A model generated the notes under the pieces. The model was not told the DNA's origin. It saw only the letters and a program-made list of their open reading frames with translations, and ran no database searches. Below are positions 34,001-62,591 of a stretch of 64,000 nt of DNA, in pieces. The position numbers were made by a program, and so were the translations under genes. Origin of the DNA: an uncultured Gammaproteobacteria bacterium (GTDB lineage Bacteria > Patescibacteriota > Microgenomatia > UBA12405); NCBI GenBank assembly GCA_964463925.1, contig CAYXDV010000002.1, positions 19-64,018 of the forward strand, read 5' to 3'. Numbering within the stretch: the stretch's first letter is position 1; every line of letters begins with the position of its first letter.

Positions 34001-34542
34001 AGATCCAAATATCACAAAACTATATCAAATCATCTACAAACAGCCTTGCCATCCAACCACAAAAGACAGGCATAGTGACCATTCTTGGCGATCTGTTGAC
34101 TCTTGCAGACAATGGATCTGTCACTATTAATGGTGATTTAACAGTATCAGGCACCATTGCTAGTAGTGGTGTTTTAACTAGCAACTTAATAGCAACAGAT
34201 GCCAGCATTAGCGGAACGCTAACCTCTGGCAAATTGAATATTGCTACTGATAGTGCCACTCTGATTATCGCTCAGGATAATAACCTCAACCAAACAGCCG
34301 GCTCTTCTGCTCAAATTATCAGTAATGCCAGTGCAGGCCTGGCAACTCTACCGGCAGGCAGTACTGAACTCATTGTTCAATCAAATCAGCTGCATTCCAA
34401 TTCTATGGTCTATTTAACTCCAAATTCTTCCACCCAAAATCAAGTTGTCTATGTCAAGTCTAAAGATGACAAAAGCTTTACGATCGGTATCGATACCCCG
34501 CTACCCACTTCCATTCCTATCAACTGGTGGATAATTAATTAG
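28042..34542 (+). CDS. giant membrane-anchored surface protein (2166 aa) with tail-fibre-like GIGTTxP repeats
   Basis: Uninterrupted 6.5-kb ORF. The N-terminal ~40 aa carry a third SAM-like repeat (AYLNKLKSSGTSQSTLARKQASLNTFNRF), followed by a TM helix (ILIPVTLFLLIGALTYGFF). At least eight copies of (V/I)GIGTT(S/N/T/V/I)P...L(D/E/Q/S)V, as in phage tail-fibre proteins. Gly/Thr/Asn-rich, beta-rich. Confidence 0.9.
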   Translation: MLNLGQISSHQKQEAYLNKLKSSGTSQSTLARKQASLNTFNRFAAIKFPKSTTSKIVSTTSKSIKLAPSFNPLKILIPVTLFLLIGALTYGFFRQTIQQAVQSFAYPNTPTRPTRRLSFQGRLTDTTGTPITSPSNVKFGLWNAGTGGTELYNTGTGGTVVPDQNGIFSVLIGDQVGTEIPANIFTENQNIYLEITMNPSSSAETMTPRQQIASVGYALNSETLQGYPPLGVGQSNVVLVLDNTGVLNLGYTSPTFKSTAGTFGLEGQAMTLKATDTSNGSLNLNPDGTGNVNMIFEGTSAVGATGFLSLTNANLSGGALIYSNINNTNRGYDFINFQNYNPATTTLASRFRVDAYGNASIGGTMSAVNIAVSGNSNIGGTLNLTNTPQGVGTTVLYLSNTGVVTQGTLPATSSGIASGYNGLSIGGTAIGLGGTLNQNTNIGTSNFYLRFTGQTNQEALYINNAGDLGVGTTNAYANAQLSLEGGYLGLENGDFGGSRGIRFRNSADTGTASISGGGIYQASNDVLYLQDGATNITILRNSIGGEKLRITNSGIGITGGGIIYPSSDSTNGLSIANSSGTKFVGFDTTNQRVGIGTTIPNDTFSVNNQFTINSSGVAKAANGSTTTPSYSYLNDTSSGLYLNTTSDIRVSIGTTSVAQFTPLGMTIGKSLGYDTGATLRLSNSSSGGRNSLVLLNANTGVGSSSSALTWKNASNTTLWEMANDNGANGGQNFYLYDGLAGQYRWHVNSSGNMGIGTVNQTGKLSVVGSQGDTRSVSIDNREIKFRGDGVAHMSIFGPDTSKSYLTIQNTSSSSAVGTTGADLLTVLSSGSVGIGTTSPRGILQVGQDIGGTGPILTFLSAGTTGKFGVGTTNPVDTLEVVGNAVANTFVDRQNISYLLDPAQTSNTASSLSLTSTGSVRFNSTYNTGWKSIDTGNDTLIKLEAQSNSATNRGLILGIATTGAGGTMTPGLWDSQSLYLKNNGYIGIGTTNPSYRLEVAGSVRIGGTLFDTTSQAGTAGQVLMSTGTGVSWGSGSTPTNGLQYIGNSIGLGGTLVQNTTIGTSSFYLNFLGLGNTQSLYLASSGYIGIGTTTANAKLSLGNNVATGFLDTYGEYQILLFDAGGAGGSYGLGVKGSTLVMNSGAGAYSFDRAGNATTLYMDTSGNVGIGTTSPSGRLDVVNGTTNYLGTNQFADGIAELGSRGTGNRYSYIDFHGDDTYTDFGLRIIRNNTGANADSQISHRGTGQLAIRTEEAGSNIGLWTAAGERVRITDTGNVGIGTTVPRNGLELAKLDSNYITSLRIGGITGGNTGVGLSTETSRHQILFSSWRDTQTDTVGAKIAAINLNNWSAGNAAVQKTDLAFFTLGTTPTSTDNTTEKMRLTSNGYLGVGTTNPYAGLDVKGGAFFDGNLFNYNTNGVNGISDEASLVPNTGFEIVDPNNSNLAIGWTALMVGSSGLQTVTRETGSTMVTQGNAAVKITRGGTSGQGYILLSSCIPISQNRNYILSWIDIGTTSDNNGMYGAYEGYTTLSDCASRNIGAGTSGNSVQTYYGATAEGTLTKNTFKPHYTTPFNAGTGYKWARFGFRSNTFAVSGGTAYFDAFKAWTDDNYSSNTQGGVDLAENYPVNPDQNIEPGDLVALSPTLSTEAGINVLEKSTTPNQSTLFGVVSTKPGLVLDDSIPYTRAAIALAGRVPIKISPNSAPILAGDYITSSSYAGFGQKSLSAGKVIGQALESWTPESGKSTITILINNTYYTPQIFLTNSGHIQTNFVTDSKALASLGLESSQDAIVHANYDLVDQLGNTLNRTEQFSNILSAKIMTGLLEANNIVTNITTSKTTITKDLYTETISPLGNNTQIKINSDLNVAGNLLATDIATTKLIASEASISGTLYADRIVSKEGNFNDLLTSRVVALRTELQTFISSNTAPAMPPSTIASQIPLWSFDVGTSATEIKGDLKLSDNLIVAAKLQVQGQAQLASALVAHDLTIDQIQISQNYIKSSTNSLAIQPQKTGIVTILGDLLTLADNGSVTINGDLTVSGTIASSGVLTSNLIATDASISGTLTSGKLNIATDSATLIIAQDNNLNQTAGSSAQIISNASAGLATLPAGSTELIVQSNQLHSNSMVYLTPNSSTQNQVVYVKSKDDKSFTIGIDTPLPTSIPINWWIIN

Positions 34543-36352
34543 CTGTATACTTTTCTTTCCATTCTAAAAAATCATCTATTTTAAGCAGATTTATTACGTA
34601 CAATTGTTTCCAGTATGTAAAATCATTCAGATCTACAGCCATGTCTTTATTTAAATCAGCATCTGAATAATAAAATTTAGATACTCCCGGACTAGTATCA
34701 ACAATAGGCTCAACAAAAACCCCATCAAGTCTATATTCAGTTGACTTTTCCAAATAAAACTCTATTCGTAATTTCACTGTCAATGGGTTGACTTTAGTAT
34801 CTTGAGTTATCTCTTTATATTCTGGAGAGCTAAAAAAGGTGGTCTCAGAAGAATCTAGTACATTGCCTTTATCTCCAAACTGCCACATTTTTATCGTCAG
34901 CTGACCATTACTCAAACTACTTACTATGCCCCCAAATTTCAAAATAGTATATTTTCCAGGTATGATTTCTACATCTTGATAAATACTTTGTCTAGGCCTA
35001 CATTCACCGCCACAGTTTGTTGCCAAAAAACATCTTGCATCATAAGATTCCTCTGGCTTTCTTAAAACTAAATAGTTAGTTGTGCTGCCAACCGGTTGCA
35101 TTCGATCCCAGCCAGAAAAATCACATCTATCAAAATCACCATTAGTTAATAGGTTTTTTTTAAAAACAAGCTCGTAAATATATATACCAGTGTAGCCGCC
35201 CATTTCCTCCCAATTTGGATCTCTAGAAACATGCATATAATATTTTCCAGTCTTGTCATCCTGAAATATAGATGCATATTGTAAATCACAAGCCGGAGTT
35301 TCCCCTTTCTTATCCATTCTTTTTGAAGAGTATAAAATTGGATTTCCAGCAGGCAGCTGTTCCAAATTCCTCAACCATATATCAGAACTTCTAACAACTC
35401 CATAATCCCAATTCTGGTCCTTCATACACAACAAACTAGTATCCATCGATTCAGTAATCAAATAATATTCATCACCTTCTTTCCAGCTTCTAGCAAAACC
35501 AAAACCTTTGTTCTCGCCCTGCCAAAGCTCCCTCCATATTCTGGAATCTCTCTTGGATAATACAGAATCATCACCTGTTTCATAATCCACAAAATTTTTT
35601 GTTCTAGCTGTCCCACGAAAACCAGCAAGCCCATCAAAACCATGAAAACTAATGTAATAATAGCCATCTATTTTGTCATAAATATCAAAGGTACCTTCGT
35701 CAGCAACCTTACCAATTCCTCCAGATTCTTGAACACACACATCAGCATTTGAATTACATATTTTCCTCCACAATTCACCACCAACAATTACCGGAGCAGT
35801 TTTAAGTTCAAAATCACCATAAGGGTCAATATTATTTCTAGTTGCCAAACACCCGTTCCAATGCCCGTCAGATCCTAAGCATTGAAACAAATATAGCCAT
35901 TGGTTTTTGTCCCTGTCAAAGTACATACTTCCATCAGTACCGCTGCACTCCCAAGGACTTCCAGCCACAGCCTTTGGGACAATCACTTGGGGCCAGGACC
36001 AAGTTTTACCCTGGTCATATGATCTCCTTATTGTAGAACCAGATGCACCTTGACCATTGGTAATGTCCAAACATTTCTTCGAGGTTTTATTTTCCCAATC
36101 ATATTCTCTAGCCACCATATACCACACCCCATTCTTAACAAAAATCTGAGTTCCTGCTTGATATCCATATATATTTATAAATTTATCAACATTTTCTTGC
36201 CATTGACTAGAATCTTTGATTAGTAATGAATTATTTAGTTTCCATTCGGCTTTCCCTTCCCAATAATCTTTCAAAATCGGTTCACTGGCTATTGCGCAGT
36301 TTGCCACAGACATACCCCACAACATAAAAAAACATAATATATATTTTTTCAT
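34535..36352 (-). CDS. secreted BNR/Asp-box repeat (sialidase-superfamily beta-propeller) protein with C-terminal dockerin-like module
   Basis: Signal peptide. Asp-box SYDQGKTWS (SxDxGxTW). C-terminal DLNKDMAVDLNDFTYWKQLY...DDFLEWKEKY. Confidence 0.7.
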   Translation of the reverse strand: MKKYILCFFMLWGMSVANCAIASEPILKDYWEGKAEWKLNNSLLIKDSSQWQENVDKFINIYGYQAGTQIFVKNGVWYMVAREYDWENKTSKKCLDITNGQGASGSTIRRSYDQGKTWSWPQVIVPKAVAGSPWECSGTDGSMYFDRDKNQWLYLFQCLGSDGHWNGCLATRNNIDPYGDFELKTAPVIVGGELWRKICNSNADVCVQESGGIGKVADEGTFDIYDKIDGYYYISFHGFDGLAGFRGTARTKNFVDYETGDDSVLSKRDSRIWRELWQGENKGFGFARSWKEGDEYYLITESMDTSLLCMKDQNWDYGVVRSSDIWLRNLEQLPAGNPILYSSKRMDKKGETPACDLQYASIFQDDKTGKYYMHVSRDPNWEEMGGYTGIYIYELVFKKNLLTNGDFDRCDFSGWDRMQPVGSTTNYLVLRKPEESYDARCFLATNCGGECRPRQSIYQDVEIIPGKYTILKFGGIVSSLSNGQLTIKMWQFGDKGNVLDSSETTFFSSPEYKEITQDTKVNPLTVKLRIEFYLEKSTEYRLDGVFVEPIVDTSPGVSKFYYSDADLNKDMAVDLNDFTYWKQLYVINLLKIDDFLEWKEKYTAN

Positions 36353-40838: not shown

Positions 40839-43800
40839 TTATGGAGGAGCAATTGTCGAGCTAATCGTTTCAGGTGCCAAATAAGCTGTCTTCCAAACTA
40901 AAAAGTCGCCAAATGTCATTTGTCCTAAGTTATATCTATCTTTCCAAATCATAAAATCGCTAATATCGACTTTAGCATCATTATTGTAATCACCCAAAAG
41001 TGTACTACTACAACTGACACCATCTGTAGCACAGCTATTTGCACCGGAACCAGTGACCGTTCTACATGAATTGTTTACACAAGTCCTGTGGCAACACCTC
41101 CAATCAGTACCCAAGCCCCCATCGTTTTTACAGCCAGGTCCAGCACAAGCGCAGGCCACCGGAGTACCAGGGCAAGAATAAGTTGAATCACCAGCTCTAC
41201 TCAAATGTAGCTTTTGTACACAGCTTTCCATATTCTCAATTGGCCAACCACCTGCATAAGTATTAAATTGTAGGTCATTTACTACTTTGCCAGTTGCAGC
41301 ATCTGTCCCGCCTATGTCTCCGGCTTTTACTATCCAACTAAAAGTTTTTCTAGCTGTCGAAATTGTACTTACAGTCGCATTGTTTTGATAAGAAGGTTGT
41401 CCAGCAGTGGCTCCAATATGAACATTATCTCCAACCAATATCGCTGGACGTGCATTTCCGTTACTATCAGTATTTCCTATGTTATACATAGCCAAGGTGT
41501 TCCAATTACCAGTAGGATTATCAATAGTTGCTGTAACAGTTACGGTGTTCCCAACACTGGACATGTCTAAACTGCCAGAAGAAATACCAGAGCTAACACA
41601 ACGAACAGCTTCTGCCGTACACATTACCTGCGGACCAAATCTGTAAATCGAATGTCTAGGCCATTTTTCAAAAGGTTCAGCGACATAATAAGGCCAAACC
41701 CCAATATCATAAGATACCCCAGGAGTAAGATTTAGAGTAGTAGATCCCACTCCAGTTTTTTGATCACTAATCACAATCCATCTATCTTTGGGGTCATAGT
41801 TAGGATCAGTAGTAGTTGGTGTGTAATTTACATTTGTACTTCTATCATTAACCATAACCACATAGGCCAAAGGTGAAGTTCCAGCGTTGGCCGGTCTATT
41901 CCATGTCAAGATTTTACTGGAACAAGAATATCCATTGCCAACAGAAACAGTTGGGGCATTTAGATTTGGACCATACATATAACTAACGTCTTGCTCTACT
42001 CCACCAACATTCTTCACTACCCTCTTTTGTCCATTACAAGTATGTCCGGAATACATAGACCAATTACGATCTATATAACCATCCTTACAAATTCTAACTG
42101 CATTGTCAGCATCACTCCAGTCACACACAGCACCAACAGAACAGGGTTGAGATGTGGTAACTCTACTTAAATGTAATCTCTGTACACAGCTTTCCATATT
42201 CTCAATTGGCCAACCACCTGCATAAGTATTAAATTGTAGGTCATTTACTACTTTGCCAGTTGCAGCATCGATTCCAGAAATATCACCAGCTCTTACTGCC
42301 CAGGTAAAGGTCTTGTTAGGTCCAGAAGTACTTACCGCCGCATTGTCTTGATAAGATGGTTGTCCAGCAGTGGCTCCAATATGAACATTACCTCCTGTTA
42401 TTATTGCTGGTTTGGCATTGCCACCAGCATCAGTGTTCCCGATGTTATACATAGCTAACGAATTCCAATTACCAGTAGCATTGGCCATAGTAGCTATAAC
42501 TGTCACCGTATTTCCCAGGTTCGACATATCCAAACTGCCAGAAGAAATACTAGAGCTGACACAACGAACAGGAATTCTTGTTGGTGATGGACTGGTTGGT
42601 GAAGTACACATGATTTGTGGACCAATTATGCCAACTCCATGTCTAGACCATTGAGCATAATCTTCAGCTTTGTAATAAGGTTGTACTGCAATATCAATAG
42701 AATCATCTGCCACAAGACTTAGTGATTTACTAAGATTAATAGCTGATTGCTGATCATTAACCACAATCCATTGATCATTTGGATCTTTACCGGTTCCGGT
42801 ACCAGGCAAATAGGAATCATTCAACTTGTGATCATTAACCATAATCACATAGTTAATTAAATTAGAACCAGCATTAGTTGGTCTATTCCAGGTTAAAGTT
42901 GTATTACTACAACTGTATGTAATTGATGTAGGAGCTAGAAGAGCAGTAGAAGGTATGTTTGTTGGTGATGGATTGGTTCTACTCAAATGTAACTTTTGTA
43001 CACAGCTTTCCATATTCTCAATTGGCCAACCACCAGCATAAGTATGAAACTGTAAATCATTTACTACTTTGCCAGTTGCAGCATCAATTCCAGAAATATC
43101 ACCGGCTTTTACTGCCCAGGTAAAGGTCTTTCTAGTTGCCGAGACTGTATTTACAATCGCATTATCTTGATAAGAAGCAGTTGTACCACTATTGCCAATT
43201 TTTACATTACCTACAGCTGGCAACAAGGCATCTTTAGGATTGTTTGCACTATAGAGATTCTCTAGATTATACATAGCCAGTGAATTCCAATTACCAGTAG
43301 GATTATCAATAGTTGCCGTAACGGTTACGGTGTTGCCAACATTGGACATATCCAAACTGCCAGAAGAAATACTAGAGCTGACACAACGAACAGGAATCTT
43401 TGTCGGTGGTGGATTAGTTGGTGCAGCACACATGACTTGTGGACCAATTCGGTAAATCGAATGTCTAGACCATTTTCCATATGGCTCATTAAGATAATAA
43501 GGCCAAACCCCAATATCATAAGATACCCCAGGTGTAAGGTTTAAGGCCGCATATCCCAACGCAACCTGATGGTCAGTCACCACAATCCACTTGTCTTTAG
43601 GATCATAATTGGAAGCTGTAGAAGTGGGCACATAATCAGCATTTATACTCCTGTCATTAACCATTACCACATAAGCCATTGGAGCACCTAAAGAAGCATT
43701 GCTAGGCCTCACCCAAGTTAACCCTCCGCTAGAACAGCTATAACCACTATTATCTCCATATGCAGTTGGGGCATTTAAATTTGGACCATACATATAACTA

Positions 43801-44060
43801 ACATCAACACCAGAAGCATCAATCACTCTCTTTTGTCCATTACAAGTATGTCCGGAATACATAGACCAATTACGATCTATATAACCATCCTTACAAATTC
43901 TAACTGCATTGTCAGCATCACTCCAGTCACACACAGCACCAACAGAACAATCCTGGGCAGGTATTAGACTCGTGACTGCCTCCACTTTACCAACCACCCC
44001 AAATATCATAATAAACCCAAAAATTAGTACACCAAAAAGATCCATACTTAAACATAACAA
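40839..44060 (-). CDS. secreted 1073-aa repeat protein (three ~270-aa tandem modules + Cys-rich knot + C-terminal dockerin-like module)
   Basis: Signal/TM. The module VRCVSSSISSGSLDMSNVGNTVTVTATIDNPTGNW...IENMESCVQKLHLSR occurs three times. The shared CSVGAVCDWSDADNAVRICKDGYIDRNWSMY module occurs twice. C-terminus CKNDGGLGTDWRCCHRTCVNNSC...DYNNDAKVDISDFMIWKDRY...FLVWKTAY. Confidence 0.85.
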   Translation of the reverse strand: MLCLSMDLFGVLIFGFIMIFGVVGKVEAVTSLIPAQDCSVGAVCDWSDADNAVRICKDGYIDRNWSMYSGHTCNGQKRVIDASGVDVSYMYGPNLNAPTAYGDNSGYSCSSGGLTWVRPSNASLGAPMAYVVMVNDRSINADYVPTSTASNYDPKDKWIVVTDHQVALGYAALNLTPGVSYDIGVWPYYLNEPYGKWSRHSIYRIGPQVMCAAPTNPPPTKIPVRCVSSSISSGSLDMSNVGNTVTVTATIDNPTGNWNSLAMYNLENLYSANNPKDALLPAVGNVKIGNSGTTASYQDNAIVNTVSATRKTFTWAVKAGDISGIDAATGKVVNDLQFHTYAGGWPIENMESCVQKLHLSRTNPSPTNIPSTALLAPTSITYSCSNTTLTWNRPTNAGSNLINYVIMVNDHKLNDSYLPGTGTGKDPNDQWIVVNDQQSAINLSKSLSLVADDSIDIAVQPYYKAEDYAQWSRHGVGIIGPQIMCTSPTSPSPTRIPVRCVSSSISSGSLDMSNLGNTVTVIATMANATGNWNSLAMYNIGNTDAGGNAKPAIITGGNVHIGATAGQPSYQDNAAVSTSGPNKTFTWAVRAGDISGIDAATGKVVNDLQFNTYAGGWPIENMESCVQRLHLSRVTTSQPCSVGAVCDWSDADNAVRICKDGYIDRNWSMYSGHTCNGQKRVVKNVGGVEQDVSYMYGPNLNAPTVSVGNGYSCSSKILTWNRPANAGTSPLAYVVMVNDRSTNVNYTPTTTDPNYDPKDRWIVISDQKTGVGSTTLNLTPGVSYDIGVWPYYVAEPFEKWPRHSIYRFGPQVMCTAEAVRCVSSGISSGSLDMSSVGNTVTVTATIDNPTGNWNTLAMYNIGNTDSNGNARPAILVGDNVHIGATAGQPSYQNNATVSTISTARKTFSWIVKAGDIGGTDAATGKVVNDLQFNTYAGGWPIENMESCVQKLHLSRAGDSTYSCPGTPVACACAGPGCKNDGGLGTDWRCCHRTCVNNSCRTVTGSGANSCATDGVSCSSTLLGDYNNDAKVDISDFMIWKDRYNLGQMTFGDFLVWKTAYLAPETISSTIAPP

Positions 44061-44081: not shown

Positions 44082-46481
44082 TTATTCCTCAATAATCCAG
44101 TTTTTAATCTTTGCAGCTAATGCGTTTTCTCCAAAATCAGCTAGTCCAGCTGCACCCCACATCTGAAAACAAGAAGACTGTGGGTCACAAGGAAAATTTA
44201 GAATAGTAAACCAAAAAACTTTCTCAGCACCTGATTTCAATTGATCATCTATCCACCAATCAAAATTATTAACAACGTTTCCAACTGAATTTCCTCCAGC
44301 TGGGATATTGGCAGATCTCTTAAAATATTGATCTATGTTTGTCTCAGTTACCCAAACAGGTATTTCCCCCCACCCCAAACTCTGTAAATATCTATGTGTC
44401 CTTGCCACCTCTTCTCCAGGCGGAATTATCGAATATGTATGTATATTCATCACATCAAAAGGTATTCCAACATTCCTCTTCTTTATTTCAGAAAGCATAG
44501 AGTTACCAATCAAGGCCGGTTCCCCAGGTTCTGCTATCTGCCAAGCACCAAAAGCATTTACTACTACTTTTGCTTCAGGATCTATTTTTTTTATTTCTCT
44601 ATAAGTCGCAATCAGCAAATCTGCATAACTTTGTTCTTTTGTCTTTCCTGGTTCAGGCACAAAAAAAGCGCTATCCACGTCTGCTTCATTCCAAATCTCC
44701 CAATTTTTTACTTTATTTTTATATCTAGTAACTACAGCATCCACATATCCAAGCCAGTCAGTTAAATTTTGAGCTGGATATTTTTCCCTTTCTGCAGGAA
44801 TAGAAACTGAACTTGGAGCTGAGCTAGCCCAAGCTGGAGATGTACCCAATATCACTGATAAGTTATCTTCAGTTTGATATAGATTCATCACATAATCAGA
44901 CGCAGCCCAATTCCATTGTCCCTTGTTTGTTTCTAACGCACGCCATGGAAGATCTTCTCTGGCCAATTTCAACCCCATACCTTTAAAAACCCCATATTGT
45001 TTCTCTACATTTTGTAATGCATCTTGGGGTGTTTTACCTCCTGCTCCTGTAGCCCAAACATAATAATTAAACAAATAATTACCCATCCCAAACTGACTTT
45101 TCCTTAATCCTCCTTTGGCCACATAAACATCCTTCCACTTTAGGAAATCACTTATTGCTAATTGATTTAGTACATATTTTTGCTTCCAATAAACAAAGTC
45201 ATTCAAGTCAATAAAGTTATCATGATTCACATCAGCAGGAGAATACACAGTCCCACACTTACTACCTTCTCCGTCACATTTATTATCACCACTGCCAGCA
45301 ACCGTACTGCAGGCATTATTCACGCATTCCCGATGACAACACCTAAAATCAGTGTTTGACCCTGCCTCGTTCTTGCAGGCACCACCTATACAAGAACAAA
45401 CACCAAAGGATCCTGTACATGCAAAGCTGGTATCTATCAAATGCATACCTTGCAGTTGCCAGTATCCCCAATTATCGCTTGCCGATAGTTCATAAGGAGC
45501 CCCAAAGCCAGCATAAATGTCGCTTATCCCGTAAATCTTTCCTTCTCTGTCACTCAATAGCCCAACATTGTGGGCAAAATCTGGAAAGTTATTTTCAGCC
45601 TCAATCATTCTTATTTCACTCCAGTTAACTCCATCTTGAGATGTTCTATACCCCAAAGCACTATTAGATGTATGCGAATTTTGTATTTGCATCATCACAA
45701 ATTGTTTATTCACCTCATCATATTTTATATCGGGTGAATGACCACGTACGTTGCTCAAATTCGTTTCTTTGGAAATAAAGTTTATTCCATCATCTGACGT
45801 AGCCATAAAAAGACCAGGGATCGATCGATATGCAGTATCATCCATATACCACATATAAGCTTTATTATCCCTCCAAACAACCGATTGTTGTCCGGCTCCA
45901 TACGGCGCATCCAATGTTGTTATATTTTTTGCTTTCACTATTTTCTTTGGAAATTGTGGGTTGTTTTGCCAAGTATTGTCTTCCGCTAAGGTTAAGTATG
46001 GGCCTTCTATATCTTGAGATCTGGCTACCGAAATATAGCTCGAAAACAAACTTGTGGCCAAATCAATTTCCAAGGCATTCGAATAATACAAATAGTAATA
46101 GCCATCTTTATAAGTCAAACTTGGATCACAAGCTGCCAGATTTTCATATTTACCAACTGAATTTTTTGTTTGTCGTGAAAATAAAACCACTTTTGGCTGG
46201 CTCCAAGTTTTTAGATCAGTACTTTTTACCAATCTAACAACATCCCATCCATCAGCCTCATCTATATTAATAGGTCTGCTGCAAAAAAAAGCATAGTAGG
46301 ATCCATTATCTTTTATCAAAGATGGAGCATAGGCGTAATTGTAACCACCCTTTTGGGGTAATGCTATTGGATTAGAAAAGTCAATTCTGTAGTCCTCGGC
46401 TTTTACCCAAGCTGGTTTTACACCAAAGATAAAGGCTATCAACCCTGCTATTGCCAATAATAAAGTTTTTTTAAATATCAT
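44082..46481 (-). CDS. secreted two-catalytic-domain protein: N-terminal GH43-like beta-propeller, internal Cys-rich knot + dockerin-like module, C-terminal GH5/GH39-like (clan GH-A) domain
   Basis: Signal peptide. ACDPSLTYKDGYYYLYYS, a GH43-type DPS...GxYYLYY motif. CKNEAGSNTDFRCCHRECVNNAC...DVNHDNFIDLNDFVYWKQKY...FLKWKDVY. NWEIWNEAD, a clan-A acid/base EIWNE motif, and VWVTETN, a nucleophile-like motif. Confidence 0.75.
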   Translation of the reverse strand: MIFKKTLLLAIAGLIAFIFGVKPAWVKAEDYRIDFSNPIALPQKGGYNYAYAPSLIKDNGSYYAFFCSRPINIDEADGWDVVRLVKSTDLKTWSQPKVVLFSRQTKNSVGKYENLAACDPSLTYKDGYYYLYYSNALEIDLATSLFSSYISVARSQDIEGPYLTLAEDNTWQNNPQFPKKIVKAKNITTLDAPYGAGQQSVVWRDNKAYMWYMDDTAYRSIPGLFMATSDDGINFISKETNLSNVRGHSPDIKYDEVNKQFVMMQIQNSHTSNSALGYRTSQDGVNWSEIRMIEAENNFPDFAHNVGLLSDREGKIYGISDIYAGFGAPYELSASDNWGYWQLQGMHLIDTSFACTGSFGVCSCIGGACKNEAGSNTDFRCCHRECVNNACSTVAGSGDNKCDGEGSKCGTVYSPADVNHDNFIDLNDFVYWKQKYVLNQLAISDFLKWKDVYVAKGGLRKSQFGMGNYLFNYYVWATGAGGKTPQDALQNVEKQYGVFKGMGLKLAREDLPWRALETNKGQWNWAASDYVMNLYQTEDNLSVILGTSPAWASSAPSSVSIPAEREKYPAQNLTDWLGYVDAVVTRYKNKVKNWEIWNEADVDSAFFVPEPGKTKEQSYADLLIATYREIKKIDPEAKVVVNAFGAWQIAEPGEPALIGNSMLSEIKKRNVGIPFDVMNIHTYSIIPPGEEVARTHRYLQSLGWGEIPVWVTETNIDQYFKRSANIPAGGNSVGNVVNNFDWWIDDQLKSGAEKVFWFTILNFPCDPQSSCFQMWGAAGLADFGENALAAKIKNWIIEE

Positions 46482-47649
46482 AGCTACCCTTCCAATCTAA
46501 AAATTTTGAAAGATTAGATGTTCCAGAGATATATCCTTGTTTCCAGAATAAGAAATCATTTAAATCAACTTTTCCATCTTTGTTCAAATCGGCATTATAA
46601 GAATCACATCCAAAAGTAACTGGATAATCAGTTTTCAATTCACCGCTCTTATACATTTCCTGCAAATGTAAACTTACATTTTTTACCCTAGACATAAATT
46701 CAGGATTTCTAATCATTGGCACTTCACCCAGATTAGCCGTAATTTCACCTGTCCCAGGCCATTCATAAAAATACCACCACATCAAACCAAAATTATCACT
46801 GTATTCTCTGGTAATGTTTATCTGTTCCATTAGTTGGTCTTCGCTGGGCCAGTAGATATTGTCTCTATTGCAATTAACAGTACCGCTAAGCAAACCACAA
46901 TTCCACATGCCCATACCTTGAATTATTCTATACAGATTCTTTGGCCTAGACATTTGGTTGGGAACATCTGCCACTCTATTCATTAATAGTTGAAGTAAGT
47001 TTCTAAGTTCACCTAGATTACGCATATAAGCAGGCGAGCCATCCTGCTTTTTTACAGTAGAATCATTTGGATTCCAATAAGGAAACCAGACTAAACCGGT
47101 CATGTCTGCATAATTGGTGTATAGCAAAGCTCTATCATCACCTGTGTTTACCATGTGTACCATTGTCGGATGAGCTGAGTCTATTTGTCTAATAAAATCA
47201 ATAATCGGCTTAAAATTCTTACGAACCACACCATCCATCGGCACGTTTATTTCTGGTTCATCAAAATACATATATCCATACAAACCTTCATTATTTTTTA
47301 TTCCATTCAACCAAGTTCTGAGTTGGTCTTGCATATTTACACTGCTGGCAAAATCTCCTCCTCCAACAAATCCAGTCATATTCAAAATAACTTTTACCCT
47401 TGCTGCCTTGGCTGCATTTAAGGCCTCCAGCGTAGACGACAAACTCCCATACCTACCCATTAAAATATTTGCCCCAGCATCATCTCTAATCTTTGTAGCA
47501 TAATCAGCCGTACCCCCAAAATTATGCCACACGGCAACTGGATATTCTTTTGTGCAAGTATCTTGCGATGCCAAAATTTTTATTGGATTAAACAGCTCCA
47601 AGATTAACAGTCCAAAAACAAACCAACAGTAAATGCTGAATTTAAACAT
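46471..47649 (-). CDS. secreted hydrolase-like protein with C-terminal dockerin-like module (paralog of 47642..48781)
   Basis: Signal peptide. YMYFDEPE segment, possibly a TIM-barrel glycosidase acid/base. C-terminus DLNKDGKVDLNDFLFWKQGY...FLDWKGSY. Confidence 0.7.
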   Translation of the reverse strand: MFKFSIYCWFVFGLLILELFNPIKILASQDTCTKEYPVAVWHNFGGTADYATKIRDDAGANILMGRYGSLSSTLEALNAAKAARVKVILNMTGFVGGGDFASSVNMQDQLRTWLNGIKNNEGLYGYMYFDEPEINVPMDGVVRKNFKPIIDFIRQIDSAHPTMVHMVNTGDDRALLYTNYADMTGLVWFPYWNPNDSTVKKQDGSPAYMRNLGELRNLLQLLMNRVADVPNQMSRPKNLYRIIQGMGMWNCGLLSGTVNCNRDNIYWPSEDQLMEQINITREYSDNFGLMWWYFYEWPGTGEITANLGEVPMIRNPEFMSRVKNVSLHLQEMYKSGELKTDYPVTFGCDSYNADLNKDGKVDLNDFLFWKQGYISGTSNLSKFLDWKGSYDI

Positions 47650-48781
47650 AACTTGCCCTCCAACTCAAAAAAGTATTTATATTAGTCTTGCCACCCACAT
47701 ATTCATTCTTCCAGAATAAAAAATCATTTAAATCAACTTTTCCGTCTTTGTTTAAATCGGCACCAATAGCAGACAATCCACCACCACAGCCAACTCTAAC
47801 TGGGTAATTTGTATTGATCTCTCCATCTTTATACATTTTCTGAACTTCTTGGTTCACGTATTTAACATCATTCATAAGACGAGGACTATTAACCATCCCT
47901 ATTTCCCAAGCACTAGTATCTGTTATCGAAGTTGGCCAACTGTACATATACCACCAAACTGCTCCAAATTTATTTGTAATCTTTTTCATAGTATCTATTT
48001 GCCTTCTCACTTCATCATAACTTAAAAAATAAGGATCTTCTCCTTCACGATTACCATAATAGGGTCTCATACCATCAGCCTGAGCGATAAAATAGTAATT
48101 TTTACTAAGAGCTGGATTCGCTTGTTCACTTCTTTGAACCATTCTTGTCCAAGCATTAACAACATCCTCATATTTCCAGGCATATCTATTGGAGTCAGAA
48201 TAATCCTTTGGGTTCATAACTCCATAAGACACTGCCCCTGTCATATCAGCATATCCAAAAAAGGGAGTAGAATTGTCAGGATCTACACCCATATTCATAG
48301 CCCCTCCCCCCGAGGTATGTGCTAATACAGGATGTTCAGGATCTTCTTCTCTAATCAAATCTAACATTATTCTAAAATTATCCTTCAACCAATACATGCC
48401 ATTGCTCTGAACTCTCAACTCTGGTTCGTCCGCATACACATAGCCATACAGCCCAGGATGGTTTTTAATCTGCCTAATTTTCTGCCGCAAACTATTTTGT
48501 AAATTTATATCTGTCGAAAAATCCTTCATTGTGGCATATGTCTCCATAAACACCAACAATTGCACCCCATTAATTTGAGCCGCATCTAAACTGCTTTTTA
48601 ATGAATCATAACCAATATCAGTCATTACCACATTTATCCCGGTTCTGCCATAAACTTGACTAGCATATTCACCGGCTCCTCCAAAGTTGTTCCAACCAAA
48701 AATAGGAAACTCTAAATGGCAACTATCCACAGCCAACACTCCTCTAATTGATAAAAGTATCCAAGACAAGAACCAAAGCAT
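47642..48781 (-). CDS. secreted hydrolase-like protein with C-terminal dockerin-like module (paralog of 46471..47649)
   Basis: Signal peptide. YVYADEPE. C-terminus DLNKDGKVDLNDFLFWKNEY...FLSWRASY. It overlaps its paralog by 8 nt, which suggests an operon. Confidence 0.7.
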   Translation of the reverse strand: MLWFLSWILLSIRGVLAVDSCHLEFPIFGWNNFGGAGEYASQVYGRTGINVVMTDIGYDSLKSSLDAAQINGVQLLVFMETYATMKDFSTDINLQNSLRQKIRQIKNHPGLYGYVYADEPELRVQSNGMYWLKDNFRIMLDLIREEDPEHPVLAHTSGGGAMNMGVDPDNSTPFFGYADMTGAVSYGVMNPKDYSDSNRYAWKYEDVVNAWTRMVQRSEQANPALSKNYYFIAQADGMRPYYGNREGEDPYFLSYDEVRRQIDTMKKITNKFGAVWWYMYSWPTSITDTSAWEIGMVNSPRLMNDVKYVNQEVQKMYKDGEINTNYPVRVGCGGGLSAIGADLNKDGKVDLNDFLFWKNEYVGGKTNINTFLSWRASYV

Positions 48782-53821: not shown

Positions 53822-53943
53822 GTTCTGGCCGCGACCTATCTTCGGCACCCCGTTGCCGGGGCACTATTGTCAGCGCTATCGTGTTTCACGACTCTGTTCG
53901 GAATGGGAAGAGGTGGTACCACAGATGCTCTGGCGACCAGAAC
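53822..53943 (-). rRNA. rrf: 5S ribosomal RNA
   Basis: The reverse strand reads GTTCTGGTCGCCAGAGC...CCCATTCCGAACAGAGTCGTGAAACACGATAGCGC...GGTCGCGGCCAGAAC. This is the 5S helix I/III/IV/V pattern, about 122 nt. Confidence 0.85.
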
Positions 53944-56370
53944 AAAATGCAGTGTATTTGTTTGACCAATTATTAAAAATTTAACAACTTGAGTAAGCTG
54001 CTTGAAATGAAACTAAAAAATAGTGATTCGATCTTGCCATCGCTTAGCTAAAACTCTTACGAGCCTTCCACCTGCAACGTATCAACCAGTAGTCTCCTGG
54101 CGATCTAATGATGGTTCCTTATCTTAGGGTCAGTTTCCTGCTTGAGATGCTTTCAGCAGTTATCTAATAGAAACGTGGCTACCCAGCATTGCACTTGAAA
54201 GCACAACTGGCACACCAGGGGTTTCCTCATCTAGGTCCTCTCGTACTGTAGATGAATCCCTTCAAGAACCAAACGATTATAGAGGATAGAGACCGAGCTG
54301 TCTCACGACGCTCTGAACCCAACTAACGCAGCGCTTTAATGGGCGAACAGACCAACCCTTGGCCCCTTCTTCAGGGCCAGGATGCGCCAAGTCGACATCG
54401 AGGTGCCGAACCCTGTCGTCAATGTGAACTATCGGACAGGACTAGCCTGTTATCCCCAGAGTAGCTTTTATCCAGTAAGCCCGTGCCCAAACCAATTGGG
54501 TCACGAGGATCACTAAAACCGTCTTTCGACCCTGCTTCCAAACTCAAAATTGGTTGGAAGTCCGCCTTACGGCGGATTCGACCTGTTTGTCTCACAGTCA
54601 AGCCAGCTTATGCTTTTGTACATACAGTCCGATTTCCTGCCGGACCAAGCTGACCTTTGTATACCCGCGTTACCTTTTAGCAGGTGCCTGCCCCAGGCAA
54701 ACTAGCAACCATACACTGTCTCCCCGTTTTTTCGGGGGTAAGACTCGCATGCAATCAAGGGAGGTGTTCCATTGTCGCCCGAAGGCTCCCTCCTACACTC
54801 GACAATAAAGGCATACTCATCAATGTAAAGATCCAGTAAAGCTTCATGGGGTCTTTTTGTCCTTCTATAATTAAACGGCATCTTCACCGCTCTTTCAATT
54901 TCGCTGGATGGATGATTAAGACAGTTACACGGTCGTTAACTCTTTCATACGCGTCGGAACTTACCCGACAAAGGACTTCGCTACCTTAGAACAGTTAGAG
55001 TTACTGCTGACGTTCACGAGGGCTTGTAAACAAGGCTCAACCTTGCGGTATCACCCGGCTTTTTAACCTTCTCGCACCGGTCAGAGTCCAGCCCCTATAC
55101 TTCCCCTTACGGGTTTGCAGAGACCTGTGTTTTTGGTAAACAGTCGCCGTGTATTCTTTTGTTGTAGCCTCGATAAATCGAGGCAGGGCATCTCGTAGAC
55201 TTACGCCCAGCTAATTTGCCAAGTTCCTTAACCATCCTTCTTCCAATCACCTTGGTCTACTCGACCAACCCACCAGTGTCGGTTTACGGTACGATTACAT
55301 TTTTATCTAGTTACTACATTTTTTTCAGACGCATGGATCGCAATACTCCCAAGCTTACGCCTAGTTGTATTCATAGCTCGCTTTAAAACGGTAAACCGGA
55401 TTTTCCTAATTTACCTAGCTAAACTTCTTTAAAAGTCGAATTCAGATCGACTCTATTGCTACCACACCCCGTCCTGCTATAACTTAAAACGATAAAAACG
55501 TAGGACCGGAATATTTACCGGTTATCCATCCACTTATCTACCATTACAGTAGCTTCATGTTAGGATCGCCTTACCCGCAGTCGATAAACGTAGCTGCGGA
55601 AACCTTGGGTATTCGGTGGCCTGGATTCTCACCAGGCTTACGCTACTCATGTCTGCATTCTCACTTCTAGCCACTCCACCAGCCCTTACGGACCAACTTC
55701 ATCGCAACTAGAACGCTCTCCTACCAGATGTCCGCCAAAGGCGGACAAATCTCCAATTTCGGCACTATGCTTGAGCCTCGTTACATTTTCGGCGCGCAAT
55801 ACCTAAGTAGACCTGTGAGCTATTACGCTTTCTTTAAAGGATGGCTGCTTCTAAGCCAACCTCCAGGCTGTCTAAGGTATCACACTTCCTTTCCCACTGA
55901 GCATAGATTTAGAGGCCTTAATTGAGAGTCCGGGATCTTCCCCTTTTGTCTAACCAGCTTAGCCCGGCTAGACTGACTGCCACGCTTAGATGTATGGTAT
56001 TCAGAGTTTGGTTAAACACCAGTCCTTGCGAACTAAATGCTCATCCAGTAGCTTTACCCCCACACATAAACACGTGACGCTATACCTAAATATATTTCGG
56101 AGAGAGCCAGCTATCTCCGGTTTCGATTGGCATATTACCCCTAACCACAGATCATCCGATACCTTTACAGCGGTAATCAGTACGGGCCTCACCCCGATTT
56201 TCGTCGGGGGTCACCCTGCCCATGGTTAGCTCAACCGGTTTCGGGTTAACTGCAACCGTCTATTCGCCTTATTCAGACTCGCTTTCGCTACGCCTACTCC
56301 GCCTTAGGCGGATTAAACTTGACGGCAACAATCACTCGCAGACTCATTCTTCAATAGGCACGACATCACC

Positions 56371-56510
56371 CATGTCCAACACTCGAAATCTAGACATTCA
56401 AAACAAAATAAATTTTTTCGAGAACGTCCCCGCAGCGTAGCGAGGAAGTCCGGCGAGAAAAAATTACGTTTTGTTTTGAAATAAGTTTAGGTTTCCAGTG
56501 TCAGACACAG
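56371..56510 (-). repeat. 23S rRNA intervening sequence at the helix-25 position (hairpin with conserved 17-19-bp base stem)
   Basis: rRNA-sense TGTGTCTGACACTGGAAAC...about 100 nt AT-rich with a GC-rich core...GTTTCGAGTGTTGGACATG. It sits between the conserved GAAACC...ACAAGC and CCTATTGAAGAATGAGTC flanks that correspond to E. coli helix 25. Confidence 0.55.
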
Positions 56511-56905
56511 GCTTTGTCTGTTTGTTAGCATATGGTTTCAGATCTATTTCACTCCGGTAACTACCGGTGTTTTTCACCTTTCCCTCGCGGTACTAGTTCA
56601 CTATCGGTCCGCCAAAGTATTTAGCCTTGGAGATTGGTCTCCCCAGATTCCTACGGGATTTCACGTGCTCCGCAGTACTCAGGTACCAAACCATACTTTT
56701 ACTAGTTTTCGGATACGGGACGTTCGCCCTTTTTAGTCGACTGTTCCAAGTCGTTCTCCTGACTTTCAAAGTAATTATGTCTGGCCCTACAACCCCTATC
56801 TTGCGATAGGTTTAGGCTCTTCCGTTTTCGCTCACCGCTACTGACGGAATCTTTTTAATTTCTTTTCCTCCGGGTACTTAGATGTTTCAGTTCCCCGACT
56901 TACCC

Positions 56906-57049
56906 AGCTGTCCAACACTCGAAACTTGTTATACCTATTTAAATTTACGAAATAACTAATTTTTCGCACGCAATCATGCACGGCGCGTGAGTACAAAAAA
57001 TTATGTTATGAGTAAAAATTTAAATACAAGTTTCCAGTGTCAGACAGCT
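56906..57049 (-). repeat. 23S rRNA intervening sequence at the helix-9 position, homologous termini to the helix-25 element
   Basis: rRNA-sense AGCTGTCTGACACTGGAAAC...about 105 nt AT-rich...GTTTCGAGTGTTGGACAGCT. It sits between CCGAATGAGGAAAC...ATGGAAGC and GGGTAAGTCGGGGAACTGAAACATC. Confidence 0.55.
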
Positions 57050-57324
57050 TCCATAGTATTTCTACTACAGGAGTTTCCTCATTCGGACATTGTGGGATCA
57101 CAGCTTGTAGACAGCTCCCCCACACATTTCGCCGTCTTCCGCGTCCTTCATCGGCTTTGGCAACCAAGGCATCCACCATATGCTTTATTTCAATATTTTC
57201 CAGCTTATTTCAAGCAACTTAATTAAGTTGTCAATTTTCTTATATTAGTCAAACAAATTGTTAAAGTACAAATTATATTCAAAAAACCTAGTTTTCGACC
57301 AGGCTTTAGAGAATATAACCAGTG

Positions 57325-57397
57325 TGGACCTAAGGGGACTCGAACCCCTGACCCCCTCATTGCAAATGAGGTGCTCTACCAACTGAGCCATAGGCCC
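57325..57397 (-). tRNA. tRNA-Ala (anticodon TGC), immediately upstream of 23S
   Basis: Reverse strand GGGCCTATGGCTCAGTTGGTAGAGCACCTCATTTGCAATGAGGGGGTCAGGGGTTCGAGTCCCCTTAGGTCCA. The G3-U70 pair typical of tRNA-Ala is present. Confidence 0.85.
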
Positions 57398-57403
57398 TCG
57401 CAC

Positions 57404-57440
57404 CCCATTATTATACCTAAAAGAGCTATATAAATAAAAA
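57404..57440 (-). promoter_or_regulatory. candidate promoter of the tRNA-Ala/23S/5S transcript (perfect -10 TATAAT)
   Basis: The minus strand reads ...TTTATT(-35-like)...N17...TATAAT, then 12 nt to the tRNA 5' end. The -35 is weak and AT-rich. Confidence 0.35.
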
Positions 57441-57462
57441 AGCCGAAGCTTTTTGCTTCGGC
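57436..57462 (-). terminator. rho-independent terminator of the GH18-like gene (minus strand)
   Basis: GCCGAAGC-AAAAA-GCTTCGGC hairpin followed by TTTTTT on the minus strand. Confidence 0.55.
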
Positions 57463-57568
57463 CATAAGACATTTGTTTTTAGATCAACAATAGTTTATGT
57501 GTATACATGCCGAAGTTTTATAGGTGAGGCCATTTTAGCCCAGAAAACACCCCAAGTCAACGAGGTAG

Positions 57569-58612
57569 TTATTCCAATAATCTGGCTAATTTATCTCCGA
57601 ACTTACCTTCATACCCCAATGCCCACCAAGCCACACCTCCATAACCATATTTTTCTACCCGACCTATCTTTGCCATCAAGCTTCGTTCGTTTTCAAAATA
57701 GATTTGCCTAATTTGCGATCCCAATTTATAAACTAACCAAGGAGTATCTGTAACCTCATCGTAATTTACTTTGATTTTCCAGTTGTTTTTTAAAAAGTCT
57801 TCCATTCTACCCAGGCTGGCCAACATCCTCACACTTCGGGGATGGAGTATTGAACCAAAATCAGTGGTTTTAGTTCTCCATTCATACCCATACAAAGGCA
57901 GGGCTACCACCAAACGTCCTTTATCTACTGGCAACTGATTTACTCTTTCAAATATATTTTCCAAATCTACCCCAGCCTTGCCAGCCAATGGAGCCACTGG
58001 TCCAGCTAATCCAGAATCATAAAAATCATAGGCCATAAAGACTACCCTATCTGTTTTTTCAAATAATTTTTTTAGTTTGCCGGCATCACCTTTGTATAAG
58101 GTGTTTCCAAAAACATCAACCGACAACTCCCCGCCTATCCGCGATCTTAAAACTGATAAAAAGCTAAAATAACTCTCATCGAGTATGGCTGTGGGGCTCT
58201 TTTGATATTCAAAATCAATATTAAACATATCTGCTCCAATTTTCTTCTCCAGTTCACTAGCCTGTCTAAAAAATACTTCCCAATAATCTTTATTAGTTAA
58301 AAACTTATCTAAATCCTTGTCTTTTAACATACTAAAAACCACACCAACTTTCCCACCTTTATTCCTAACTATCTCACTTTGTTTTTTAAAGGATTCTGAA
58401 AAAATTCTACGACTAGCAAAGTCCCACTGTAAGTTGCCATCGCCTTTTACTGGCACCGAAAAAAAGAAAAGTTTGTCCACCAAATCTACTCTAGGATTAT
58501 CAGCTAATCTCCAGTTAGGCAAAAATCCCCACTGTTCTGTCTTGGCAAATATTTCTCCACATGCAGTCGTCAAAAACAAAAATACAAAAAACAATGTTAC
58601 TTTCCAACTCAT
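57569..58612 (-). CDS. secreted glycoside hydrolase family 18-like protein (chitinase/peptidoglycan-hydrolase-like TIM barrel)
   Basis: Signal peptide. GADMFNIDFEY resembles the GH18 DxxDxDxE catalytic motif. The C-terminal YGYEW...GGVAWWALGYE resembles the GH18 end. It lies between tRNA-Ile and tRNA-Ala. Confidence 0.65.
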   Translation of the reverse strand: MSWKVTLFFVFLFLTTACGEIFAKTEQWGFLPNWRLADNPRVDLVDKLFFFSVPVKGDGNLQWDFASRRIFSESFKKQSEIVRNKGGKVGVVFSMLKDKDLDKFLTNKDYWEVFFRQASELEKKIGADMFNIDFEYQKSPTAILDESYFSFLSVLRSRIGGELSVDVFGNTLYKGDAGKLKKLFEKTDRVVFMAYDFYDSGLAGPVAPLAGKAGVDLENIFERVNQLPVDKGRLVVALPLYGYEWRTKTTDFGSILHPRSVRMLASLGRMEDFLKNNWKIKVNYDEVTDTPWLVYKLGSQIRQIYFENERSLMAKIGRVEKYGYGGVAWWALGYEGKFGDKLARLLE

Positions 58613-58650
58613 TTATTCATCCTACGTAGTTTTCCTTTGATAGTCAATTG

Positions 58651-58724
58651 TGCGCGAGCATGGACTCGAACCATGGACCTCAGTCTTATCAGGACTGCGC
58701 TCTAACCAACTGAGCTACACGCGC
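58651..58724 (-). tRNA. tRNA-Ile (anticodon GAT)
   Basis: Reverse strand GCGCGTGTAGCTCAGTTGGTTAGAGCGCAGTCCTGATAAGACTGAGGTCCATGGTTCGAGTCCATGCTCGCGCA. There is one U-U mismatch at 6-67. CCA is not encoded. Confidence 0.75.
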
Positions 58725-60369: not shown

Positions 60370-61674
60370 TTATTGATGAACAATGGTGTTTGCCCACAAT
60401 TGGTAATCAGCTAAAGTAACTTTTCCATCACAATTAAAATCTCCTTGCCAATGGTCAGATTGCTGACTCCTGGCAACTCCAGCAGAGCCGTTTGTTTGAA
60501 AATATTCTCCGGCCCACATTGTGTAGTCAGTGTTATTTATCAGATTATCGCATGCATTCAAACTAACCGAATAAGCATTACCTGCAGATCTTGGTGGCTG
60601 CTCTGAAGTACAAATTCTACAAACTCCCACTCCAGTAATTGGGACAACAGTACTAACAGGTGCGGTTGGTATCGGGGAAGCAGGGGGCGTTGTCGGTTCT
60701 GAACCAGCAGGAGGTACACACTTCCAAACCTTACAATTCAAATCGCCTTTTGTAGAAATAGTCTTCATTACTGAAGTCCATCCGGCGGGACATTGTTCTC
60801 TACACAAAGCAAGTTTTGAACCTGGGTCAGTCGAGTCAGAACAACCAAACTGAAGAGTACTGCATGCAGGAACGGTATAGGTCGACCCAAAACACGAACT
60901 CACCGATTTATTTAAGCAATAATTATCATCACCCACTTCAGAGCCACTACATGACCCAGATGGTTTAGTGCAATTAGTTGGGGGATTGGTCGGAGGCACA
61001 GATGTCGCCGAAGGAATTGTTGGTTCCGGGGCCACTGATCCAACTGGATCAACACCTTTTATATTGATAGTGGTTTTACCAGAGGCACTAGTGCTAATTG
61101 GTTCAGCCACAGAACTACCCACATATCCCACATTACCACTAGACAGGGATAAATCTGTGCTAGTGTTAGCCCCACTTTTAATCCTAAAATAATACCCAAC
61201 CACATATACTTCCCCTGGATTTTCTACTCCTCCTGATGCCGTCGAGACGCCTGTAAAATCAATGGTTCCCGAAGAAGAGGTATTTTTTACCACCGAAGTA
61301 GTATCCGGATCAAAGAACAAAGTATTGGTTGCTGTTACCCCACCAATAAGGTTAGTTCCTGGTCTTAGGGCATATCCTATCGCCGAAGCACTTTGTGGCA
61401 AAACTTCTAGTTTAGAAGCATCGTATTGCATCCTAAATTCCACAGCAGTTACTTTCTTGGCCGTTTCTCCGGCTCCTGGAAGAGGAGGACTAATTTTTAC
61501 ATATACCAAAAAGGTATCCCCTACTGATCTGGTAACCGATTCAGGAAAAAACAGCAACCTGTTCTCTCCACTATAAGCACTTTTCTGTAAATTCTGATTT
61601 TTGTTTAATAGAACAAATCCAGCTAGTAATCCAGACAGCAACAATGCCAAAGAAACCACTTTTACTAATTTCAT
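60370..61674 (-). CDS. anchored cohesin-domain protein with Thr/Pro/Cys-rich region and C-terminal single dockerin-like repeat
   Basis: N-terminal TM/signal. The cohesin-like VGDTFLVYVKISPPLPGAGETAKKVTAVEFRMQYDASKLEVL. Pro/Thr linkers and many Cys. C-terminus GDFNCDGKVTLADYQLWANTIV. Confidence 0.55.
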   Translation of the reverse strand: MKLVKVVSLALLLSGLLAGFVLLNKNQNLQKSAYSGENRLLFFPESVTRSVGDTFLVYVKISPPLPGAGETAKKVTAVEFRMQYDASKLEVLPQSASAIGYALRPGTNLIGGVTATNTLFFDPDTTSVVKNTSSSGTIDFTGVSTASGGVENPGEVYVVGYYFRIKSGANTSTDLSLSSGNVGYVGSSVAEPISTSASGKTTINIKGVDPVGSVAPEPTIPSATSVPPTNPPTNCTKPSGSCSGSEVGDDNYCLNKSVSSCFGSTYTVPACSTLQFGCSDSTDPGSKLALCREQCPAGWTSVMKTISTKGDLNCKVWKCVPPAGSEPTTPPASPIPTAPVSTVVPITGVGVCRICTSEQPPRSAGNAYSVSLNACDNLINNTDYTMWAGEYFQTNGSAGVARSQQSDHWQGDFNCDGKVTLADYQLWANTIVHQ

Positions 61675-62588: not shown

Positions 62589-62591
62589 ATA

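Follow-up and report, generated by a model that had tools for sequence, protein, structure and literature searches.

The 64,000-nucleotide stretch of contig CAYXDV010000002.1 analysed here (the window) contains exactly seven open reading frames (ORFs), labelled A–G, that share a dockerin-like module of about 40 amino acids (aa) with a single calcium loop. ORFs A (4111–6717) and B (6680–8260), on the plus strand, begin with paralogous domains weakly similar to glycoside hydrolase (GH) family 51 and arabinofuranosidases, and end in the module. The other five lie on the minus strand: ORF C (34535–36352) joins the module to a protein of unknown family; ORF D (40839–44060; 1073 aa) has an internal repeat, present three times, ahead of a Cys-rich segment and the module; ORF E (44082–46481) has a GH43-like domain (Pfam Glyco_hydro_43, 2.8e-9), a Cys-rich segment, the module, and a GH10-like domain (Glyco_hydro_10, 1.6e-11); and F (46471–47649) and G (47642–48781; together 46471–48781) are tandem paralogues with an uncharacterised catalytic domain followed by the module. 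Hence, carriers in the window are GH43- and GH10-like (E), weakly GH51-like (A, B), or of unknown family (C, D, F, G); signal-like hydrophobic N-terminal segments, judged by eye, predict secretion for all seven. The catalytic part of F and G matches nothing in Pfam, NCBIfam, or PDB sequences. NCBIfam returned nothing meaningful for the nine window proteins searched. Of ORFs F, B, and C and the protein encoded at 60370–61674, none had a significant match among PDB sequences, ORF B being weakly similar to GH51 (E 0.12).

A first-pass annotation, made from the sequence alone, had listed these seven ORFs as one family. All seven exist and carry the module where it had been placed, although the interval assigned to the family, 46471–48781, covers only F and G and leaves the other five carriers outside. 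The module is C-terminal in ORFs A (aa 828–868 of 868; 6592–6714, plus strand), B (aa 485–526 of 526; 8132–8257, plus strand), C (aa 564–605 of 605; 34538–34663, minus strand), F (aa 352–392 of 392; 46474–46596, minus strand), and G (aa 340–379 of 379; 47645–47764, minus strand), and internal in ORF E, between the GH43-like and GH10-like domains (aa 415–455 of 799; 45117–45239, minus strand), as had been described; in ORF D (aa 1022–1062 of 1073; 40875–40997, minus strand), which had also been called C-terminal, it is only near the C-terminus, being followed by an 11-aa tail.

The consensus of the module is D-x-N-x-D-x-x-(V/I)-(D/N)-L-x-D-F-x-x-W-K-x-x-Y, nine residues, and F-x-x-W-(K/R)-x-x-Y; the copy of ORF F, for example, is NADLNKDGKVDLNDFLFWKQGYISGTSNLSKFLDWKGSYDI. 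The stricter motif proposed earlier, beginning DLNxDGKVDLNDF, fits only the two paralogues F and G, the general consensus across the seven being looser. Numbered from the first Asp, residues 1–12 follow the loop pattern of dockerins (EF-hand type), with D1, N3, D5, V/I8, D/N9, and D12, and are directly followed by a helix with F13, W16, K17, and Y20. The second F-x-x-W-(K/R)-x-x-Y is preceded by (L/I)-x-x, so that positions 10–20 of the repeat are duplicated and positions 1–9 are missing from the second copy. As the first-pass annotation had stated, the first repeat keeps a complete calcium loop (D1, N3, D5, and D12 are invariant in all seven window copies) and the second keeps the helix only: from Y20 to the second F there are nine residues without a D-x-N-x-D pattern, leaving no space for a 12-residue second loop. 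The possibility that a divergent second loop is still present was rejected for the same reason, the spacing being too short.

The seven copies share 12 invariant alignment columns and a constant spacing of 17 residues between the two F-x-x-W-K motifs (7/7). A hidden Markov model (HMM) built from them and searched against the six-frame translation of the window matched the same seven loci with E from 2e-21 to 2e-19 (2.4e-21 for G, 8e-21 for F); the only further match with E < 0.01 was a weak one (E 1e-4) to the dockerin-like C-terminal tail of the cohesin protein encoded at 60370–61674. A degenerate codon pattern for the module likewise matches the window seven times, once in each carrier, vs 0.00 expected from 100 shuffles.

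The module is a dockerin derivative. In a profile search of the PDB, its top matches are type I dockerins (3ul4_B, E 2.5e-4), the aligned part comprising the loop and the first helix only; no Ruminococcus flavefaciens group-2 or group-4 chain is among the matches. Its ligand positions 1, 3, 5, 9, and 12 (D/N) and the hydrophobic residue at position 8 are those of dockerins, and it occurs on predicted secreted carriers in a genome that also encodes cohesins. An AlphaFold2 model, made of the ORF F sequence with the seven-sequence alignment, has a mean confidence score (pLDDT) of 92 and consists of an N-terminal loop, a helix at 13–25, a four-residue turn, and a helix at 30–39. The modelled loop and helices superimpose on helices 1 and 3 of solved dockerins, the ones that contact cohesin, so that the predicted fold has the calcium loop and the two antiparallel helices forming the cohesin-binding face. 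A Foldseek search of the PDB with this model gave no match, the domain being too small.

Compared with canonical type I dockerins (PF00404; e.g., Clostridium thermocellum Doc918, 3ul4_B, and C. acetobutylicum CaDoc0917, 6kg9), the module has the same 12-residue loop pattern followed by a helix, the same predicted superposition of loop and helices, the same C-terminal location on secreted glycoside hydrolases, and cohesins in the same genome. However, canonical dockerins are built of two tandem repeats of about 22 residues, each with a 12-residue loop and a helix, whereas the module has one loop only: with the linker helix and loop 2 lost by deletion, it measures 40 aa rather than 60–70 and no longer has the two-fold internal symmetry on which dual-mode binding rests. 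In its helices, aromatic residues (F, W, Y) abound where dockerins usually have L/I with S–T and K–R pairs. Pfam Dockerin_1 scores isolated modules at 14.2–18.7 bits, below the gathering threshold of 22.9, and full-length carriers at 14.5 bits or not at all; hence, routine annotation would pass over them. EF-hands proper (Pfam PF00036 and relatives) differ from the module, as the model has no helix ahead of the loop, position 12 is Asp rather than the Glu of EF-hands, and EF-hand_1 scores the modules at only 13–16 bits vs a cut-off of 25.4.

A profile search of 1.84 billion representative proteins yielded 1,751 matches at E ≤ 0.001, and 150 of them were listed. Most of the listed matches cover only profile positions 3–25, in at least two stretches per protein, and are thus ordinary multi-repeat dockerins. 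Ten of the 150 match the whole profile (nine in a single stretch and P0138 in two); four of these are the window's own proteins and six come from related organisms. A word-indexed protein search with the module profile found only a 52-aa fragment identical to the C-terminus of ORF D.

Among the two-stretch matches are two-loop dockerins that form a family and share the helix signature of the module, D-F-x-(I/V)-W-K-x-x-Y-L, e.g., GDANGDSKIDLVDFGIWKTEYLPGTKNRADFNKDGSVNLVDFGIWKREYLN. These uncharacterised metagenome proteins (such as P0045, P0056, P0114, and P0069) share the loop and helix signatures of the module and align with it end to end except for one gap; in contrast to it, their second calcium loop is retained, and Dockerin_1 scores them above its threshold (25–42 bits vs 22.9). 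The carriers of these dockerins are Cys-rich proteins, enzymes, and proteins with cohesins, and, as in the window, cohesin and GH18 genes are found next to them. A MAFFT alignment of 13 two-loop relatives with 17 single-loop modules contains a single clean gap of 11–12 columns, spanning the end of the linker and the first 6–7 positions of calcium loop 2, which identifies the single-loop module as an internal-deletion derivative of this dockerin type. By its sequence, then, the module is best described as a descendant of a two-loop D-F-x-(I/V)-W-K-x-x-Y-L dockerin that lost 11–12 internal residues.

The module is specific to one lineage, as the first-pass annotation had suggested. A codon-pattern scan of one genome per species for 185,579 bacterial and archaeal species gave ten matches, located on eight contigs from five genomes that all bear the label Candidatus Shapirobacteria, and none elsewhere. 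This distribution, and that of the homologues, suggests that the window itself belongs to Shapirobacteria. The modules from these five metagenome-assembled genomes (MAGs) have the same length and invariant residues, with one copy having a 2-residue insertion in the turn. When 25 copies, drawn from the window, these five MAGs, and metagenome contigs, are aligned (the copy with the insertion is additional), all have the same length, and D12, F13, W16, K17, Y20, F30, W33, and Y37 are invariant. Loop residues are nearly as constant: D1 is retained in 22 copies, N3 and D5 in 23 each, V/I8 and D/N9 in 24 each, and D12 in all 25.

In the MAGs, too, the module is found on diverse enzymes. Two carriers are glycosidase-like (DUF4434), two are right-handed beta-helix proteins, one is a BD-FAE-type esterase, one is homologous to ORF C, and several others have no assigned family. 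Carriers on metagenome contigs comprise a Pel9A/GH141-like beta-helix protein, an orthologue of ORF B, and tandem orthologues of F and G, this F/G pair belonging to a sister species; one contig has a run of three adjacent tagged genes. The ORF C homologue, from a named Shapirobacteria MAG, is 37% identical in the catalytic domain and lacks the middle domain of about 160 aa, yet the module is still terminal, and hence behaves as a portable unit. A C-terminal sorting signal was also considered and rejected, as the module lacks a hydrophobic tail and, in ORF E and one Shapirobacteria MAG protein, lies inside the chain. As a side observation, the third of three adjacent tagged genes (contig L016, 5153–6930) has a divergent module without the W or K (DLNIIKSRY...DYLDLVKNY), followed by an out-of-frame fragment of a normal module; this could be a frameshift or a decaying copy.

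In two orthologue pairs from the window and the sister species (about 74% protein identity), the proportion of nonsynonymous differences in the module (pN) is 0.23–0.27, and that of synonymous differences (pS) is saturated at 0.72–0.77. Nonsynonymous change well below saturated synonymous change indicates purifying selection on the module sequence. The catalytic domains show a pN of 0.12–0.16 in the same comparison, so the module changes faster than the enzyme domains to which it is attached.

The novelty implied by the first-pass annotation, which contrasted the module with two-loop dockerins, was overstated. Dockerins of R. flavefaciens FD-1 with the first calcium repeat only (group 2) were described by Rincon et al. 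(2010; PMC2930009), who asked if they lack function or have just one binding mode. Duarte et al. (2025; PMC12270676) solved the CohScaE–Doc2 complex and found these dockerins functional in binding the cell-anchoring cohesin ScaE: RfDoc2 corresponds to the C-terminal part of group-4 dockerins, its second helix being the group-4-specific helix 4, and two copies bind per cohesin, mimicking a whole dockerin. The same study notes that some engineered half-dockerins retain full cohesin affinity (PMC12270676).

With group 2 the Shapirobacteria module shares the single calcium loop and the C-terminal loop–helix–loop–helix layout of about 45 residues. It differs in several respects: its second helix is the canonical second-repeat helix, as seen from the internal repeat and the alignment with the two-loop relatives; the loss is an internal deletion rather than a terminal truncation; positions 10/11 are L-x and not the Gly–Arg pair; and the carriers are mainly enzymes of a candidate-phyla-radiation lineage. 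Neither homology to the group-4 C-terminal part nor helix 4 is seen in the module. On these grounds, the module arose independently of the rumen group-2 dockerins. As in engineered half-dockerins, where one calcium repeat can suffice for full cohesin affinity (PMC12270676), only one repeat has its loop; those constructs, however, are artificial terminal truncations with one cohesin-contacting helix only. Within the literature library searched, no paper treats Shapirobacteria together with dockerins.

Two adjacent cohesin genes, 58774–60366 and 60370–61674, both on the minus strand, are located 10 kb from gene G. The 58774 protein has a cohesin module at aa 37–173 (59848–60258; Pfam Cohesin 25.7 bits, above the cut-off), weakly matches the R. 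flavefaciens ScaB cohesin among PDB sequences (E 0.022), and ends in a canonical two-loop dockerin (58804–58950; Dockerin_1 1e-8 on the protein, 41.5 bits for the module alone). The cohesin module of the 60370 protein (aa 39–205; 61060–61560) scores just under the Pfam cut-off (22.7 bits) but covers nearly the whole model, and the two cohesin modules align with each other. Both proteins start with a hydrophobic segment, which could be either a signal peptide or a membrane anchor. The C-terminus of the 60370 protein (60373–60558), GDFNCDGKVTLADYQLW, is a divergent dockerin-like sequence with one Dockerin_1 repeat only (16.1 bits). Its asymmetry is opposite to that of the single-loop module: the first loop is degenerate, the linker is long, and the second loop is intact.

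The cohesin pair, the upstream RimK-like genes, and the downstream GH18 gene are kept in the sister species, where the contigs with the cohesin pair and those with the tagged enzymes come from the same metagenome sample (SRR32910811). One two-loop relative also adjoins a cohesin gene and a GH18 gene. No further cohesins were found in the window or in the short module-bearing loci of the five MAGs (stretches of 4.9–8 kb). With the 60370 protein as query, a word-indexed protein search recovered only the query and a single homologue (73% identical); with the cohesin profile, it recovered a single unrelated dockerin protein. As to the neighbourhood, two ATP-grasp genes of RimK type and one small basic ORF are upstream of the pair in the window (61695–63922); on a sister-species contig (L010, 5964–9982), the pair is flanked by these ATP-grasp genes together with four T4SS-pilin genes and a 7TM transglutaminase-like gene.

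The proposed function follows from what the deletion has left: one 12-residue calcium loop (with ligands at 1, 3, 5, and 12 and D/N at 9) and the first helix, joined by a 4-residue turn to the helix of the second repeat. In the predicted shape, the loop would lead into an antiparallel helical hairpin with an aromatic core of F13, W16, Y20 and F30, W33, Y37; by homology, calcium at the single site would organise the module, and a face of the two antiparallel helices would bind cohesin, probably in a single orientation, as the two halves are no longer symmetric. The likeliest partners would be the cohesin modules of 60370–61674 and 58774–60366, which the N-terminal hydrophobic segments of these proteins could hold at the surface. 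The tag would thereby tether secreted enzymes of hemicellulase, pectinase, and esterase type to the Candidatus Shapirobacteria cell surface, and the outcome would be a very small cellulosome-like system. We infer cohesin binding from homology and co-occurrence; the signal-like N-termini and enzyme domains of the carriers, retention of the module across architectures, cohesins in the same window, and the joint recurrence of the cohesin pair and tagged enzymes in one sister-species sample all count for a docking tag, for which the cohesin-binding single-loop dockerins of R. flavefaciens set a precedent (PMC12270676). That a calcium-organised module binds cohesin via its helical face, probably in one orientation, and so tethers enzymes to the surface is, in our estimate, about 60% probable. 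More tentative, and rather open to doubt, is the stronger proposal that Shapirobacteria build a minimal surface enzyme complex by means of the smallest natural dockerin with both cohesin-contacting helices (40 residues, one calcium site), which would bind 1:1 in a single orientation to membrane-anchored cohesins.

Several observations weigh against cohesin docking. In one orthologue, G replaces D at loop position 1. The conserved aromatics are on one helical face and may be kept for folding alone, in which case they are silent on the binding surface. There are two cohesin modules in the window vs seven tagged enzymes, and the cohesin proteins bear different dockerin types of their own; the true partner may, therefore, be elsewhere in the genome.

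Some of the same observations would fit the main alternative, a dockerin-derived module whose partner is not a cohesin but, e.g., a cell-wall or S-layer component, a host-cell surface, or a polysaccharide, or which purely stabilises the enzyme via calcium. Many candidate-phyla-radiation bacteria are epibionts, and many dockerin-like modules are known outside cellulosomes, with partners that are not known; folding alone can explain the conserved residues; two cohesin modules face seven enzymes; and no cohesin was seen in the 4.9–8 kb around module genes in the five MAGs. Nevertheless, we regard this as unlikely, given that cohesins lie 10 kb away in a pair that is conserved in the sister species, that two-loop relatives also adjoin cohesin genes, and that the predicted fold retains both helices of the cohesin-binding face of solved dockerins.

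If cohesin is the partner, two modules might bind side by side to each cohesin, like the R. flavefaciens group-2 dockerins, which would double the number of enzymes per cohesin. The size and the loop–helix–turn–helix layout match RfDoc2 (PMC12270676), and the presence of seven tagged enzymes for two cohesins in the window (7:2) would agree with it. However, RfDoc2 has one canonical cohesin-contacting helix and needs two copies to complete the face, whereas here both helices are predicted within one module, so that one module should already fill the cohesin surface; in addition, the module has no sequence relationship to group-2 or group-4 dockerins and has L-x instead of G-R at positions 10–11. 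Such double occupancy is, hence, improbable.

Still less credit can be given to a decaying, non-functional dockerin remnant, a possibility that the 2010 paper raised for the R. flavefaciens group-2 dockerins (PMC2930009) and that the loss of half of the calcium sites and the failure to reach the Pfam threshold might suggest. Eight invariant positions and identical length in 25/25 aligned copies, a module pN of about a third of the saturated pS, and retention on unrelated catalytic domains and through architecture changes speak against it, and decay would not preserve one exact deletion boundary in every copy. Finally, a generic linker or a chance motif without a fold, which the first-pass annotation had named as one outcome that would refute its proposal, has only the short length in its favour and is refuted by the HMM scores (E 1e-19 to 1e-21), the codon pattern (7 vs 0 expected), and the confidently predicted loop and helical hairpin (pLDDT 92).

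Other features of the carrier genes were noted in passing. The Cys-rich segment directly upstream of the module in ORFs D (~40998–41180) and E (~45240–45420) is about 55 aa long and follows the pattern C..C.C.G..CKN..G..TD(F/W)RCCHR.CVNN.C.TV.GSG.N.C; different Cys-rich segments stand before the dockerins of the 60370 protein and of metagenome proteins, P0114 and P0046 among them. In ORF D (40839–44060), a repeat of about 330 aa occurs three times, and its sub-modules are also present in ORF A. A public variant of ORF D (P0013, 472 aa) has one repeat copy and identical ends, which suggests copy-number variation between strains or collapse of the repeat in assembly. The annotated start of ORF B overlaps the module-coding end of ORF A by 38 nucleotides in another frame (6680–6717), and the true start of ORF B may be further downstream. 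A 2166-aa protein adjoining ORF C (28042–34542) has an N-terminal hydrophobic segment and many short repeats of the G-I-G-T-T-x-P type, resembling a fibrous surface protein.

Hallmarks of a candidate-phyla-radiation genome in the window are its 36–43% G+C, a 23S–5S rRNA pair with tRNA-Ala next to the 23S gene and a protein gene separating this tRNA from tRNA-Ile, and numerous secreted proteins without a known family. The region 53823–58724 contains, all on the minus strand, genes for tRNA-Ile, a GH18-family protein (57569–58612), tRNA-Ala, 23S, and 5S rRNA; the 23S match spans 3185 nucleotides vs 2925 model positions, and thus probably includes about 260 nucleotides of insertions. GC skew of the plus strand in 4-kb windows is negative throughout 1–64000 (−0.04 to −0.35, mean about −0.24), whatever the gene orientation. 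An unusual compositional disparity between both strands is mentioned in a description of a complete Microgenomates genome (PMC7143001).

As none of the modules has a Pfam match above the threshold, dockerin-tagged enzymes and any cellulosome-like organisation are undercounted in this lineage. The module shows a second, independent route of dockerin shortening, in which one calcium loop was deleted internally and both helices were retained, and complements the truncated rumen dockerin structures of 2025. If it binds cohesin, it would offer a natural 40-residue template for short docking tags in designer cellulosomes. If the proposed function is true, at least one candidate-phyla-radiation lineage would display plant-polysaccharide-degrading enzymes on its surface, which would bear on how these reduced bacteria feed.

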